IMG/VR virus record: IMGVR_UViG_2671180673_000011
Span: 1 to 37,210 of that record
Length of the DNA stretch: 37,210 nucleotides
From: a virus
Lineage: Duplodnaviria > Heunggongvirae > Uroviricota > Caudoviricetes
Strand: one strand, 5' to 3'
Shown here: positions 15,205 through 26,826 of the stretch, in pieces
Layout of the letters: each line of letters opens with the position of its first letter
Numbering within the stretch: position 1 is the first letter of the stretch
The notes under the pieces: model-generated
Database searches by the model: none
What the model was told of the DNA's origin: nothing
The model's input: the letters and a program-made list of their open reading frames with translations, nothing else
Made by a program: the position numbers and the translations under genes

Positions 15205-15550
15205 TCTCTGCTCCTGTTGATACGGAAAGGGAAACAGGCACACCGTTATTACGCCGCCCGGTCAGCTCCACCACCATTGAACCGTCAAAATTGCTGTTAA
15301 TGGTGATGGAATCCAGCGTCAGCCGTGGCTCCCAGCGACTCAGCGCCACATACACTGCCGACATGACCTGCAGGCGTAATGCCGGATTTTGTGGCTGGTC
15401 TATCAGTGCCGACAGCAGGGAACCATATTCCCGACGGGCAATGCGGCTACCCTGCGGCGTCAGCAAAATGTCCCGCACCGACTGGCGCAGATGATCAATA
15501 TCAGTAATGGCTTTACCGCTGGTATTGTTCATCCCGCTATAAAGCGTCAT
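15191..15550 (-). CDS. W: baseplate wedge protein W
   Basis: 119 aa; MTLYSGMN...RREYGSLLSALIDQPQNPALRLQ resembles P2 gpW. Confidence 0.85.
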   Translation of the reverse strand: MTLYSGMNNTSGKAITDIDHLRQSVRDILLTPQGSRIARREYGSLLSALIDQPQNPALRLQVMSAVYVALSRWEPRLTLDSITINSNFDGSMVVELTGRRNNGVPVSLSVSTGAENGSD

Positions 15551-16125
15551 ACCGGGCCTCCGGTTGTGTCGCCGCCTTTCAGGACGTCAGTATGCTGATG
15601 CGCATCAACCACGATCCCGTTAGAACTCATCGCTCCGCCGCCCTGGGTAACGCCACCATTGATCACCACTTCGCTGTTAATGCGCGTGCGGTCAGCCTCC
15701 AGTACAAACTCACTGGTTTTCATGGTGATGTTGTCAGCGGCCTCAATGACCATTGATTTGATGCCCCTGACATACCAGCGCCCGGTAGTGGGTTCGTATT
15801 CAAACCAGCCGCCGTCAGGATGTTCTGTCACGCAGGCGTCTGCCGACGTCGACGGTGGTGCGAACTGATTCGAATAGACAGCGGGCAGCGCAAAGGCAGT
15901 TTCCAGATTGCCGCCCAGACTCAGCAGCACCACCTGCTCACCTTCCGATGGTCGCCACCATGTGCGGGCATTCCCGGCACGCAGCGTCAGCCAGCTGATC
16001 CAGTTGGTTTCAAGCTCGCCCGTTTTCACCCGGCAAAGCCAGTTTTCCCGGTCCACTTCGGTGACTACACCAGTGCGGATCAGGTTGGTGATAAGGCGCA
16101 TGATTTCGGTTAGTTGTGCGTTCAT
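15547..16125 (-). CDS. V: baseplate spike protein V
   Basis: Start set at ATG 16125 (MNAQLTEIMRLITNLIRTGVVTEV) by alignment to the P2 gpV N-terminus; the track ORF extends 36 codons upstream. Confidence 0.8.
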   Translation of the reverse strand: MNAQLTEIMRLITNLIRTGVVTEVDRENWLCRVKTGELETNWISWLTLRAGNARTWWRPSEGEQVVLLSLGGNLETAFALPAVYSNQFAPPSTSADACVTEHPDGGWFEYEPTTGRWYVRGIKSMVIEAADNITMKTSEFVLEADRTRINSEVVINGGVTQGGGAMSSNGIVVDAHQHTDVLKGGDTTGGPV

Positions 16126-16171
16126 AGGGTTAGGTTGCACGGACCTTGAATCTATGGCATCAATACGTCCT

Positions 16172-16189
16172 TGTGTGGTAAATGACACA
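16172..16189 (-). promoter_or_regulatory. candidate Ogr-binding late-promoter element (TGT-N12-ACA) upstream of V
   Basis: TGTGTGGTAAATGACACA in the V-upstream intergenic region, between V and the reverse-strand ORF. Confidence 0.3.
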
Positions 16190-16220
16190 AATACAATTCC
16201 AATCAAAGAAAGGTAAAAGA

Positions 16221-16751
16221 ATGAGCCATCCAATTGATTATTACGCTATAGAAGAACACGCAAGAATAATTGAGCAATTATGCTGTTCATCTGAATTTTA
16301 TTTACAGCGTATATATTCCACACAGAAAGTATATGATGGTTCTATAGTAACTGAATTTGAAATGGAGGAGTTATCGTACAACGGATGGTTGGAATATACC
16401 ATTAGCAACAATCTTATTAGCCTTTGTACAAAACTACGAATTCTCCAAGACACTAGTGAACATGAGTGGAACCCAGATTACTCACCTGAGAAAGAAGCAT
16501 TTGAAGAACATGAAAATATACTTTTTGTTATAGATGGTCATGTTAAAGATTCTATACGCGAATGCTGCAATAAAATTATTCACGCATTAAGTTTTGAGTT
16601 AACAAAAAAGACCGGCAAAAATGGAATAAAATATTGGGACGGTTCTATTATTGCTTCTGGGGTTCAAAACAAAAAAAACTGGAAAATTAAAATAGACCTT
16701 TTCCCTTTTTGCCAAAGCATAAAAAGTTATTTAAGTTTATTAAGAGCGTAA
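16221..16751 (+). CDS. hypothetical protein, accessory gene in the S/V slot (P2 orf30 position)
   Basis: AT-rich ORF opposite to the late operon; start chosen at ATG 16221 (AGGT 6 nt upstream); alternative start 16182; no recognisable motif. Confidence 0.55.
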   Translation: MSHPIDYYAIEEHARIIEQLCCSSEFYLQRIYSTQKVYDGSIVTEFEMEELSYNGWLEYTISNNLISLCTKLRILQDTSEHEWNPDYSPEKEAFEEHENILFVIDGHVKDSIRECCNKIIHALSFELTKKTGKNGIKYWDGSIIASGVQNKKNWKIKIDLFPFCQSIKSYLSLLRA

Positions 16752-16756
16752 ACATT

Positions 16757-17209
16757 CTAATTTTTCATCAATAAATACTTTAAAAGTAAATCTCTTACTT
16801 CATTTTCAGTATGTTCATTTAAACCCAGCAATTTTCGGGATGGATACTTAATGACTCCCCCCTTTGGACTGACGCGATCGCGCAGACCGTAGTGATGAAC
16901 ACGGGCAATACGCTGTACCTTACCTTCAAACTGTACGCTGGCAGAATCCGCGCTGGCGGCAGTTCTCAGGTATTTTGTGGTGCGCAGCTTTGCAAACATC
17001 TGACGTTTGATGCGCCCCTTCTTGCTGCGTGCTGTTACCCTGCGCGGCTCATAACTGCTGCCATCTGGATTGCGCTGCATCCTGATATTCTGCTGCTGTG
17101 TCCGGCGCAGTTCCTGCGCCAGCTGGCGCATCATTCGGCTTCTTGCGGCTGGTTCCAGATTCGCCAGCAAAGCACTCAGCCAGTCGTCCACCTTCTGCAG
17201 TTCAGCCAC
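16757..17209 (-). CDS. S: tail completion protein S
   Basis: 150 aa, position and character of P2 gpS. Confidence 0.85.
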   Translation of the reverse strand: MAELQKVDDWLSALLANLEPAARSRMMRQLAQELRRTQQQNIRMQRNPDGSSYEPRRVTARSKKGRIKRQMFAKLRTTKYLRTAASADSASVQFEGKVQRIARVHHYGLRDRVSPKGGVIKYPSRKLLGLNEHTENEVRDLLLKYLLMKN

Positions 17210-17654
17210 GTTTCACCGTCCACATTTCTTCAGGTTCATCGGGTTCCGCTACTGCTTCAACGCTCGACACACTTCCGTCAGTGCTGACCAGCACACGTTC
17301 CGTCAGTTGCAGGTTGAGGCTGATATCACAGACATCGTTGCGCAGAATATCCACCTCAAAGGTGAATAACTTTTCCCGTAACGCCGGATTATTGATGGCA
17401 TCGGGCTGGTTATCACGCAGCCACAGCAAAACCGGGGCCATCAGCAGATTCTGGTCGCCGCTGAAATCCTCAATCACCACGTTGAGGGTATAACGGTACT
17501 CCCATGACATGGAGCTGGCCCCCGTGGCAACCAGCGAACCGTTATCCACAAACAGATGCAGCTTATCCGGGTTATTGCGGACATAAGGCACTGCTTTATT
17601 GAGGGCGTGGCGCAGGGATTGTGGTTTGTTCACTGTTTCGCTCCTGACACGCAA
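17202..17654 (-). CDS. R: tail completion protein R
   Basis: 150 aa; ...FVDNGSLVATGASSMSWEYRYTLNVVIEDFSGD resembles P2 gpR. Confidence 0.85.
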   Translation of the reverse strand: MRVRSETVNKPQSLRHALNKAVPYVRNNPDKLHLFVDNGSLVATGASSMSWEYRYTLNVVIEDFSGDQNLLMAPVLLWLRDNQPDAINNPALREKLFTFEVDILRNDVCDISLNLQLTERVLVSTDGSVSSVEAVAEPDEPEEMWTVKRG

Positions 17655-25174: not shown

Positions 25175-25915
25175 TTACTCAATAGGTTCAAACTCATCTT
25201 GAGGAATCAGCGTCGATTGACAGGCTTGGCTTAGTACCCCTGATAATTTACATAATAACCGATAGTTATGAGGAGCATCATCGCTAATCTTTTCGACCGT
25301 TAAAGTGATTGATTTTGGATCATCCAATAACATCTTCTTGATGTCATTACTTAAATACCTAGGGCAGTAACCAACGATTTCAGCTGGTTTATCTGCACGA
25401 ACGACAACAGCATCCCCATCGTATTCATTTTGAAGATCCAAGCAAAGACGCAAAATTTGCCCCGGTTTCAATTCAGATACACGAGCATTAGCTAAGCTAT
25501 TCAAGTAACCAAGTCCATGTAAGAAGAAAAAATGCTCAAAGTTACCATCAGAATCAAAATCAATTTTTTTGAAAATCTGCAGCTGATCAGTGCTTCGTAA
25601 GCCTCCCGAGCGAGCAAGAATATCGATAGGATTTACCTTATCTTCTTCAAATCCAAGCCATTTAATGAAACTCGGATACTCTGGACGTCTCGGTGATAAA
25701 AGGCGATTTTTAAAAAGAGGAAACAATTCTTCCGATACATAAGTTTCACGAACATCACTCATGCCGCTAAACTTTGTAAATTTAGAAGATTTAAGAGCAC
25801 CTTTGGTATACCTGAAAACATACCCCGATTTGCGCTCTTGCAAGTTACCAACAACATGCCAGTCTCTGGTATCTGGTGCCTGCCATGCGACGTAAACGGA
25901 GTTTGTATTAGTCAT
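25175..25915 (-). CDS. HipS-like / HIRAN-domain fusion protein (putative partner of the HipA-like kinase)
   Basis: N-terminal LFPLFKNRLLSP and DILARSGGL resemble HipA N-subdomain-1 (FFDNLLPDSP...); C-terminal LRLCLDLQNEYDGDAVVVRADKPAEIVGYCPRYL fits the HIRAN signature; ATGA overlap with the upstream kinase gene. Confidence 0.6.
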   Translation of the reverse strand: MTNTNSVYVAWQAPDTRDWHVVGNLQERKSGYVFRYTKGALKSSKFTKFSGMSDVRETYVSEELFPLFKNRLLSPRRPEYPSFIKWLGFEEDKVNPIDILARSGGLRSTDQLQIFKKIDFDSDGNFEHFFFLHGLGYLNSLANARVSELKPGQILRLCLDLQNEYDGDAVVVRADKPAEIVGYCPRYLSNDIKKMLLDDPKSITLTVEKISDDAPHNYRLLCKLSGVLSQACQSTLIPQDEFEPIE

Positions 25916-26826
25916 TCTAGTAACCTTCTGCGATTTTCCATTACCATTAACGTTGCAAATCTACGTGCACTGTCGGATATACACGATGAAGGCACTTGGT
26001 TAAACACATCTGTAATGGAATCTTCTGTTAAAACGCTCAACTTACCTAACCAATGGTCGCGAGCGGCAACTCTCCCTTCAACTGCATGTTGAAATGCTTC
26101 AACAGTCAGCAAGGGCTTTTTATCAGTTTTTGCTTTGAATAGCTCAGAGCGAGCTTTTCTTACAAAACATGGGATTTGTCGATTTTTATCTTTAGTATTA
26201 AGCCGTTCGTTACGCTCATCATCTAACATCTCCCTTCCTAAACTAGCGGCATGATCGTATGTTGGACACAAAAACTGCTCACCAGTTTCATTGTTAAGCA
26301 TGATTGCCCAATTTTCATGGTGGCGATCTTGATTACTCACAAGTGCATCGAGCATCAAATATCCACAAAATACATCTGCTGCATTTAGCCCGGTTAGATC
26401 ATATACACTCGGAGGAGGCTTGATAGATTCCCTATCTAAACAACCCAAGACCCTTGTGACAGTGTGTTCTCTGACCCTTACCGGCTTTTCCCCGGCTTGT
26501 AAAGGCCCAGGATAATCGAATGTCGAACTGTGAAGCACTTCATTTCCCATTACCATCCGGAAACCAGATGGAATGATATTCTGAGTCACCACACCGAATC
26601 GACCATTGTATCGCGCCAAATCATAGCTAGCATGTGGAATGTTAAGCAAATGACATAACTCAGCAGCACACTTTTCAGACCAATGCTCGCCAGTACCTGG
26701 CCTAGAGTACTTAAACAACTGCAAATTTACAGTGTCATCGGAGAAATAGAACCAAAACTTCTCTTTGGTTCCTAACTGTTCAAGATCGTTAGCTACGGGG
26801 CTAAGCTCTACCAATTGGTATGGCAT
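25912..26826 (-). CDS. HipA-like (HipT-type core) protein kinase
   Basis: 304 aa; GTKEKFWF (cf. HipA Gly-rich loop VAGAQEK), catalytic loop SNQDRHHENWAIM (cf. HipA GATDGHAKNF), CPTYD (cf. HipA TPFYD); no HipA N-subdomain-1. Confidence 0.7.
   Translation of the reverse strand: MPYQLVELSPVANDLEQLGTKEKFWFYFSDDTVNLQLFKYSRPGTGEHWSEKCAAELCHLLNIPHASYDLARYNGRFGVVTQNIIPSGFRMVMGNEVLHSSTFDYPGPLQAGEKPVRVREHTVTRVLGCLDRESIKPPPSVYDLTGLNAADVFCGYLMLDALVSNQDRHHENWAIMLNNETGEQFLCPTYDHAASLGREMLDDERNERLNTKDKNRQIPCFVRKARSELFKAKTDKKPLLTVEAFQHAVEGRVAARDHWLGKLSVLTEDSITDVFNQVPSSCISDSARRFATLMVMENRRRLLE

Follow-up and report, generated by a model that had tools for sequence, protein, structure and literature searches.

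A stand-alone cargo gene of a mobile protein family in the S-V slot of a P2-like prophage, with a candidate role in single-gene anti-phage defence

P2-like prophages occur in a large proportion of Escherichia coli genomes. Two of their hotspots, one at the old/tin position between gpQ and gpA and the other at Z/fun, carry AT-rich cargo with a high turnover, much of which is anti-phage (PMC9122126). The orf30 locus, lying between the tail genes S and V, is one of the three variable loci of these phages, and is occupied by a different open reading frame (ORF) in phage R18C (PMC3091744; PMC6823313); this S-V slot is absent from both the analyses of Rousset et al. 2022 (PMC9122126) and the iLund4u hotspot survey. 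Small mobile genes of a comparable kind have been described in the chromosomal integron of Vibrio cholerae, in which around 18% of the tested cassettes of unknown function protect against phages, and in which Esos, a single-gene cassette encoding a HEPN-like domain only, confers phage resistance accompanied by growth arrest or death (preprint 10.1101/2024.07.02.601686). Here we analyse the gene occupying the S-V slot of a P2-like prophage, our window being the whole 37,210 nt of the IMG/VR record IMGVR_UViG_2671180673_000011, in which the late genes lie on the minus strand. This ORF is best explained as an autonomous accessory cassette of a single gene (a moron), occupying the orf30 slot of a Cartapus-type P2-like prophage and having a role that is probably anti-phage defence. 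The slot, the idea that it holds cargo, and the gene as a deposited hypothetical protein were already known; new are the boundaries of the gene, the mosaic junction within S, and the finding of several unrelated opposite-strand single genes in the slot, together with the size, mobility and defence association of the protein family and its putative variant HEPN-like motif.

The arrangement of the locus is that of P2. In the P2 record, S is followed by the terminator of the O operon, then by Orf30 (NP_046770.1), a nonessential protein of 261 aa encoded on the opposite strand, then by the activator site of the V promoter (pV), and V; in the window, the cargo gene likewise occupies the interval from the end of S to the pV activator site, and is encoded antiparallel to the late genes, which is the position that the initial annotation had given for orf30. 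However, the product is 176 aa rather than 261 aa, and P2 has an annotated terminator after S, whereas no terminator-like hairpin was seen between the cargo gene and gpS. Homology of the cargo protein to P2 Orf30 was rejected, as hhalign returned a probability of 0.7% and tblastn found no match to P2. The S-V slot also resembles the P2-like defence hotspots in being a small locus between conserved phage genes, but differs from them in that all the cargos seen in it are single genes, none of which is matched by PADLOC.

The ORF is listed at 16182..16751 on the plus strand, as 189 codons in the gap separating gpV and gpS. The initial annotation had given a length of 177-189 aa, of which the ORF stands, but the longer start does not: M-S-H-P is the N-terminus in 14 of 14 aligned homologues, at identities down to 32%, and equals the ATG at 16221. 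Hence the product spans 16221-16748, with its stop at 16749-16751, and the start at 16182 was rejected, since the 13-residue N-terminal extension it would add is absent from every homologue. In a Salmonella copy, TTG replaces ATG at the same position (L002 6001-6003). Comparison with the Salmonella copy, at 74% amino acid identity, gave a non-synonymous divergence (dN) of 0.152, a synonymous divergence (dS) of 1.62, and a dN/dS of 0.094, while the chance of an open frame of 176-189 codons at the local base composition is ~1e-7 per frame start. The ORF is a real gene under strong purifying selection. That it might instead be a chance open frame or a decaying remnant without function would suit its annotation as a hypothetical protein only, and its low expression in lysogeny broth (LB), but these values, the hundreds of full-length homologues with an invariant core, and the confident fold prediction leave such an origin a negligible probability; it is the only one of the alternatives considered here to be excluded, by the conservation data. 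The initial annotation had also allowed that the ORF might lack both expression and a coding signature, or else be a structural gene conserved in all relatives. The signature of selection and the transcription seen in strain LF82 disagree with the former, and the gene is neither universal nor structural.

The variability of the slot was evident from a survey of its occupancy. The window is 100% identical to Escherichia phage Cartapus (Peduoviridae, Elveevirus) over 15500-17300, the ORF being gp14 of that phage, and 100% identical to E. coli LF82 over 16100-16900; the encoded protein is the same as Cartapus gp14, LF82_787 and WP_000019234.1, all annotated as hypothetical protein, and no mention of these accession numbers was found in the literature. 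By contrast, Klebsiella phages and E. coli phage 500465-1 have both flanks at 94-96% identity, without ~570 bp between them, such that the S stop abuts the activator site in 500465-1, as it does in Fels-2. When the joined V and S flanks were searched for in 5426 complete E. coli genomes, both were found in one place in 727, and in an evenly spaced sample of these the slot was mostly empty (a 1094-bp span); the cargo gene was present in 22 of the 5426. At least three other cargos take its place in E. coli: a DUF6216 protein of 268 aa (L016 883-1689), found in genomes that include the BL21 derivatives T7Express and BAP1, and hypothetical proteins of 145 aa (L017 868-1305) and 481 aa (L018 4159-5604). 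These three are unrelated single genes, each on the strand opposite to the late genes. A tblastn search of 50,697 phage records matched Cartapus alone, and not P2. The layout of V, ORF and S, together with the low GC content, was kept in 20 of the 20 phage-borne copies recovered (58-100% identity), with GC contents of 0.32-0.38 in the gene and 0.47-0.58 in the locus. Hence the description of the ORF as cargo in a variable position was borne out, and the gene is dispensable and was horizontally acquired into a polymorphic slot.

The composition of the locus records how this acquisition occurred. The GC content of the ORF is 0.324, and 0.27 at third codon positions (GC3), against 0.55 for the late region and a GC3 of 0.65 for V, agreeing with the initial description of an AT-rich ORF on the opposite strand. 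The low-GC block extends beyond the ORF, taking in the last ~36 codons of gpS. Residues 1-114 of gpS are identical to those of phage 500465-1, whereas residues 115-150 diverge from it and resemble the gpS of other cargo-carrying phages. This break in identity at residue 114 means the cargo gene came by recombination, with a crossover inside S. An essential structural gene, gpS, is in this respect a mosaic produced by the exchange of cargo.

The protein itself belongs to a large family without a described function. Scans with Pfam, NCBIfam and PADLOC found nothing, just as no motif had been recognised initially. The sole library match was to PHROG 18838 (E 6.6e-127), of which the protein is a full-length member and which has no assigned function; unlike the 176-residue product, the 189-residue PHROG profile includes the unsupported N-terminal extension. 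A word-indexed search yielded 16 relatives, and when 1.84 billion representatives were searched exhaustively with a profile, 464 clusters (at 50% identity) reached E<=1e-3, and 109 of them E<=1e-10. Family members are nearly all 170-210 aa and single-domain, their hosts include marine Vibrio and Pseudoalteromonas, Burkholderia, Chloroflexia and Bacteroidota, and those with names, such as the members in Burkholderia, are all hypothetical proteins. Pfam and PADLOC scans of 50 diverse members returned chance-level single matches only. Residue conservation was counted in 127 full-length members: R73, N117 and H121 were each conserved in 126, K118, G147 and W154 in 124, R113 in 120, D77 in 113 (with Glu in another eight), C116 in 105, and E114 in 104, and the family signature is [ST]-[LI]-R-E-x-C-N-K-I-I-H-A. 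Across loci at which the local GC content spans 0.35-0.58, that of the gene is 0.32-0.38 (L014 8001-8534; L019-L035), including a Chloroflexia metagenome-assembled genome (MAG) in which a copy at 0.38 is found within a locus at 0.56; this constant low GC content suggests frequent recent transfer, or selection for AT-richness.

The genomic contexts of the relatives were drawn from one genome per species, and from a metagenome scan that added 80 loci, with 61 dereplicated loci then compared. No neighbour was general across these 61 loci, with five clusters each common to only two or three of them. Only the Aliivibrio homologue, and not the copy in the window, is a single-gene integron cassette, with 125-132-nt attC-like repeats at L010 7783-7906 and 8477-8600. 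Since the family has no conserved neighbour, and can exist as a single-gene integron cassette, its members are self-sufficient mobile units. The surrounding Aliivibrio contig (L010 600-11600) consists of an array of integron cassettes, in which there are 11 attC-like repeats and also a larger repeated element of ~300 nt. It also contains a two-ORF cassette (114 + 95 aa), which appears RelE/ParE-like by its layout and N-terminal sequence, as read without a family search. Such a neighbour could point to the family encoding a selfish addiction factor, in the form of a solo toxin whose antidote would be an unrecognised RNA or a host factor, and whose effect would be the stability of the prophage or cassette array, not defence against phages. 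Toxin-antitoxin modules are indeed abundant in integron arrays and prophages, the gene is AT-rich wherever it is found, and its predicted fold resembles that of HepT-type toxins. Yet the 61 dereplicated loci have no conserved adjacent small ORF that might be the partner gene of a type II toxin-antitoxin system, an Rfam scan of the low-GC block found no RNA element, single-gene cassettes move alone, and most closely related prophages do without the cargo gene. We therefore consider an addiction toxin improbable.

The company kept by the family is instead characteristic of anti-phage genes. Matches in the one-genome-per-species set were found in Aliivibrio, Vibrio, two Pseudoalteromonas, the Chloroflexia MAG and a Dokdonia MAG. 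The Aliivibrio cassette sits between a cassette encoding a Lit-like peptidase U49 (PADLOC Lit, 2e-23) and a GNAT cassette; the Pseudoalteromonas copies adjoin an AAA_23/LmuB-like ATPase or a DUF2971 protein; and the Dokdonia copy adjoins a resolvase. Of the other copies, one adjoins a PDC-S15 FRG protein, one ends a prophage tail module, and one lies beside the capsid-protease-portal-TerS genes of a primase-bearing, satellite-like element. In a metagenomic island (L039 6264-7612), the gene of a distant member, P0080, and that of a 246-aa ThsB-like/PDC-S66 TIR protein overlap by 4 bp at the end of the latter, the pair lying between a restriction-modification methylase with insertion sequence elements and a type II CBASS operon, with Cap15 beyond; this TIR protein and family member may form a two-gene system. 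In another locus, L093, a similar TIR protein is encoded three genes from a family member. Among the 137 neighbours no more than two genes away at 53 further loci, there were at least 13 very strong PADLOC matches, which included SduA (Shedu), Drt8, PrrC, AbiU, a type I methyltransferase, PDC-S06 (two), PDC-S08, S35, S46, M22A/B and mad2. Hence homologues recur beside defence genes and on mobile-element hotspots. Defence is favoured because anti-phage genes show this same spread, over prophage slots, satellites, integron cassettes and defence islands, and because the V. cholerae cassettes, including Esos, set a precedent. Esos, here compared by its published description only, resembles the cargo protein in being a small single protein encoded as an integron cassette, and the nearest non-phage relatives of the family, in Aliivibrio, Vibrio and Pseudoalteromonas, are either cassettes or genes of islands.

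Not all phage-borne members are found in the S-V slot. Two IMG/VR viral contigs have a member between a terminase-sized gene of ~520-550 aa and the portal gene (L055 1705-2199; L057 6001-6456), so that both the insertion point and the kind of phage differ from those of the window. Such positions, and the location of the cargo gene in a structural region, by a late promoter, would also be expected of a factor benefiting the phage during infection, either by counteracting defence systems or by inhibiting satellites such as P4, since anti-defence genes occupy phage variable slots too (PMC9122126). Against this, the gene runs in the opposite direction to both late operons, and the lysogen transcribes it at a time when the late genes are silent; many members are in non-phage settings, as integron cassettes or in chromosomal defence islands; and the invariant, polar, active-site-like core suits an enzyme better than a stoichiometric inhibitor. 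A role in promoting the phage's own infection is, on this evidence, quite unlikely.

The nature of such an enzyme was considered through structure prediction. AlphaFold2, run with the family alignment, gave a confident model (predicted local distance difference test, pLDDT, of 90.3; predicted template modelling score, pTM, of 0.86), with helices at 7-21, 24-34, 45-78, 89-95, 112-120 and finally 160-175, and strands at 101-105, 124-131, 137-149 and 152-159. HEPN domains are described as carrying the motif where helix 3 ends, with an acidic residue in helix 2 and inserts separating helices 2 and 3, and they can have a beta hairpin following the motif (PMC3710099). The family fits this description in outline, as its motif is on a short helix preceding a beta insert, and it has an acidic residue in helix 2; in the model, D77 is at the end of the helix at 45-78, next to the invariant R73. 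The family site is possibly a variant HEPN site, because some HEPN families are described as having displaced basic residues (PMC3710099). There are nevertheless clear differences from the HepT/DUF86 proteins (PDB 7ae2 and 5yep, and the integron-cassette protein 3jrt), as the family has R-x7-H, with Cys in place of Arg, and a three-stranded beta insert after the motif, and no adjacent MNT antitoxin. HEPN is consequently a tentative lead from the model, and not a classification.

Transcription in the lysogen is informative about the gene's autonomy. Expression was taken from published RNA-seq of LF82, which carries the identical copy, given as log2(fpkm+5), where fpkm is fragments per kilobase per million mapped reads, with two values per condition (PMC9928086 S1 table). 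The values for the cargo gene were 3.5 and 2.7 in stationary LB, 5.1 and 5.2 in B1, 5.9 and 6.0 in B6, 5.1 and 5.3 in MB1, and 4.6 and 4.4 in MB6 (macrophage, 6 h), whereas those of the flanking V and S were 2.3-3.3 in nearly all samples. This corresponds to ~30-55 fpkm for the cargo gene in B1, B6 and MB1, against ~0-5 fpkm for V and S; to judge by the caption of that table, B1 and B6 presumably denote cultures in Dulbecco's modified Eagle medium (DMEM). Therefore the cargo gene, being expressed above the level of its silent late neighbours, has its own weak, condition-dependent transcription in the lysogen, independent of the lytic genes, as would be expected of a moron.

Such conditionality raises the question of whether the benefit is to the host's physiology, with the gene being a moron that helps the lysogen in certain growth or host conditions, for instance as a stress or metabolic regulator, or as an enzyme acting on a small molecule. 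Its transcript rises from ~2-6 fpkm in stationary LB to ~30-55 fpkm in the B1, B6 and macrophage samples while the late genes are off, several homologues lie among ordinary chromosomal genes, and some of the cargo in P2 hotspots is unrelated to defence, toxins and partition systems being examples (PMC9122126). However, the family occurs in very different ecologies, and follows no pathway, but instead mobile elements and defence islands, and the cargo protein has no signal peptide, transmembrane segment or known domain. Hence we regard host adaptation as unlikely, if less so than a phage-benefit factor or an addiction toxin.

The reading of the gene as stand-alone anti-phage defence, with a HEPN-like mechanism, must itself be weighed against several contrary observations. 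Firstly, the described defence families of PADLOC v2 match neither the cargo protein nor, beyond chance, the 50 diverse members. Secondly, the defence genes among neighbours, at ~10%, were judged against a literature expectation of ~1.5% of genes (figure quoted in PMC13434031), without a matched control, and some relatives have uninformative contexts, among ordinary chromosomal genes. Thirdly, the LF82 study did not list the cargo gene as a moron (PMC9928086), because its cut-off used LB data, and the gene is near background in stationary LB. Fourthly, the HEPN motif Rx4-6H, in which a polar residue follows the Arg, is missing: the family has R113-E-x-C-N117-K118-I-I-H121, that is R-x7-H, and in 105 of the 127 members the canonical position of the HEPN Arg, four residues before the His, is occupied by Cys. 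Fifthly, profile and structural comparisons gave little. Against 120 HepT proteins, which were fetched using a consensus and then confirmed as PF01934, hhalign found nothing in global mode, and in local mode placed C116-N-K-I-I-H121 over R-[ND]-x-x-I-H at a probability of only 4.5% (P 0.009); when the family was aligned with the DUF4145 (HEPN) protein encoded by the LF82 prophage, the probability was 0.1%. The HEPN families of Pfam matched neither the cargo protein nor the 50 diverse members, Foldseek found nothing below E 0.1 in PDB or BFVD, and sequence and profile searches of PDB gave no meaningful match.

In light of these opposing observations, we hold a role in anti-phage defence to be the probable one, while a HEPN-like RNase mechanism, considered by itself, is put forward only tentatively, as rather less than an even prospect; the proposal of single-gene defence acting through such a mechanism, both parts taken jointly, we judge evenly balanced. 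The HEPN-like fold, RNase chemistry, trigger and abortive outcome are what we infer for this proposal. In it, the lysogen would make a small cytoplasmic enzyme at a low level, from its own promoter and independently of the late operons, which would stay inactive until a heterologous phage infects. The site formed by R73, D77, R113, N117, K118 and H121 would then act, most plausibly as a dimeric, metal-independent HEPN-like RNase, cutting cellular or phage RNA and stopping the infection in the manner of abortive infection systems, thereby protecting the lysogen population and its resident prophage.

Two P2-like variable loci have already given many new defence systems, and the S-V slot, left out of the surveys, holds at least four unrelated opposite-strand single-gene cargos, none of which is in current defence databases. 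It is conceivable, if somewhat doubtful, that the slot represents a third reservoir of single-gene anti-phage systems, and that this gene founds a group of minimal HEPN-like effectors with the non-canonical catalytic motif R-x3-N-K-x2-H, acting alone in prophages and integron cassettes, and coupled in some lineages to a ThsB-like TIR protein. A function for the cargo gene would reach hundreds of clusters of hypothetical proteins across phyla, and were the R-x7-H site catalytic, it would widen the sequence definition by which HEPN nucleases are recognised.

Table 1. Features of the S-V slot and its flanks in the window
Feature	Position	Strand	Description
Cargo gene	16221..16751	+	176 aa, 20.6 kDa, pI 5.4, cytoplasmic; ORF, M-S-H-P start and dN/dS
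Candidate Shine-Dalgarno AAGG	16210-16213	+	read from sequence; low confidence
Candidate weak promoter -10 TACAAT	16192-16197	+	read from sequence; low confidence
TGT-N12-ACA dyad, Ogr/Delta-type activator site of V late promoter	16172..16189	.	sequence, conservation, P2 equivalent
gpV baseplate spike gene	15547..16125	-	first gene of V late operon; annotated in 100%-identical Cartapus
gpS tail completion gene	16757..17209	-	last gene of O late operon; annotated in 100%-identical Cartapus
Low-GC acquired block	16190..16865 (approx.)	.	GC 0.32; 60-nt GC profile; holds cargo gene and gpS 3' end
AT-rich gpS 3' end, ~36 codons	16757..16865	-	mosaic junction inside S

The signals around the cargo gene are collected in Table 1, along with its neighbours, which in homologous loci are matched by the Pfam families Phage_base_V (gpV) and Phage_tail_S (gpS). 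The putative Shine-Dalgarno sequence is 7 nt upstream of the ATG. A consensus scan found no sigma-70 promoter on the strand of the cargo gene, and no terminator for it, and the TACAAT hexamer is not kept in the Salmonella or Enterobacter copies. The activator site of V reads TGTGTGGTAAATGACACA, and the initial claim that this late-promoter element was preserved is confirmed, as it is intact, and its spacing from the V start is shared by relatives whether their slot is empty or filled. The dyad is centred 55 nt before the V ATG. Because the P2 record has V transcription starting on the first coding base of V, the mRNA from which V is translated appears to be leaderless, in this prophage and in P2 alike. 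At the other end, the cargo gene and gpS are convergent, with stops 5 bp apart (16749-16760). It is a matter of speculation that read-through of the late O operon, antisense to the cargo gene, could silence it when the prophage enters lysis.

The prophage has further cargo outside the S-V slot. Its gpQ-proximal hotspot, which adjoins the portal gene and corresponds to the old/tin locus of P2, contains a two-gene candidate defence system, PDC-M03 (25175-26826, minus strand), comprising a HipA-like kinase (PADLOC PDC-M03A, 2e-122) and a HIRAN-domain protein (PDC-M03B, 7e-93). That this might be LF82's own prophage was rejected, as the content of this hotspot differs, there is no tmRNA, and only the region of the ORF is identical; because of the difference at the hotspot, it is a Cartapus-like prophage from another strain. 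In LF82 and Cartapus, a DUF4145 (HEPN-family) gene replaces the HipA-like and HIRAN pair.

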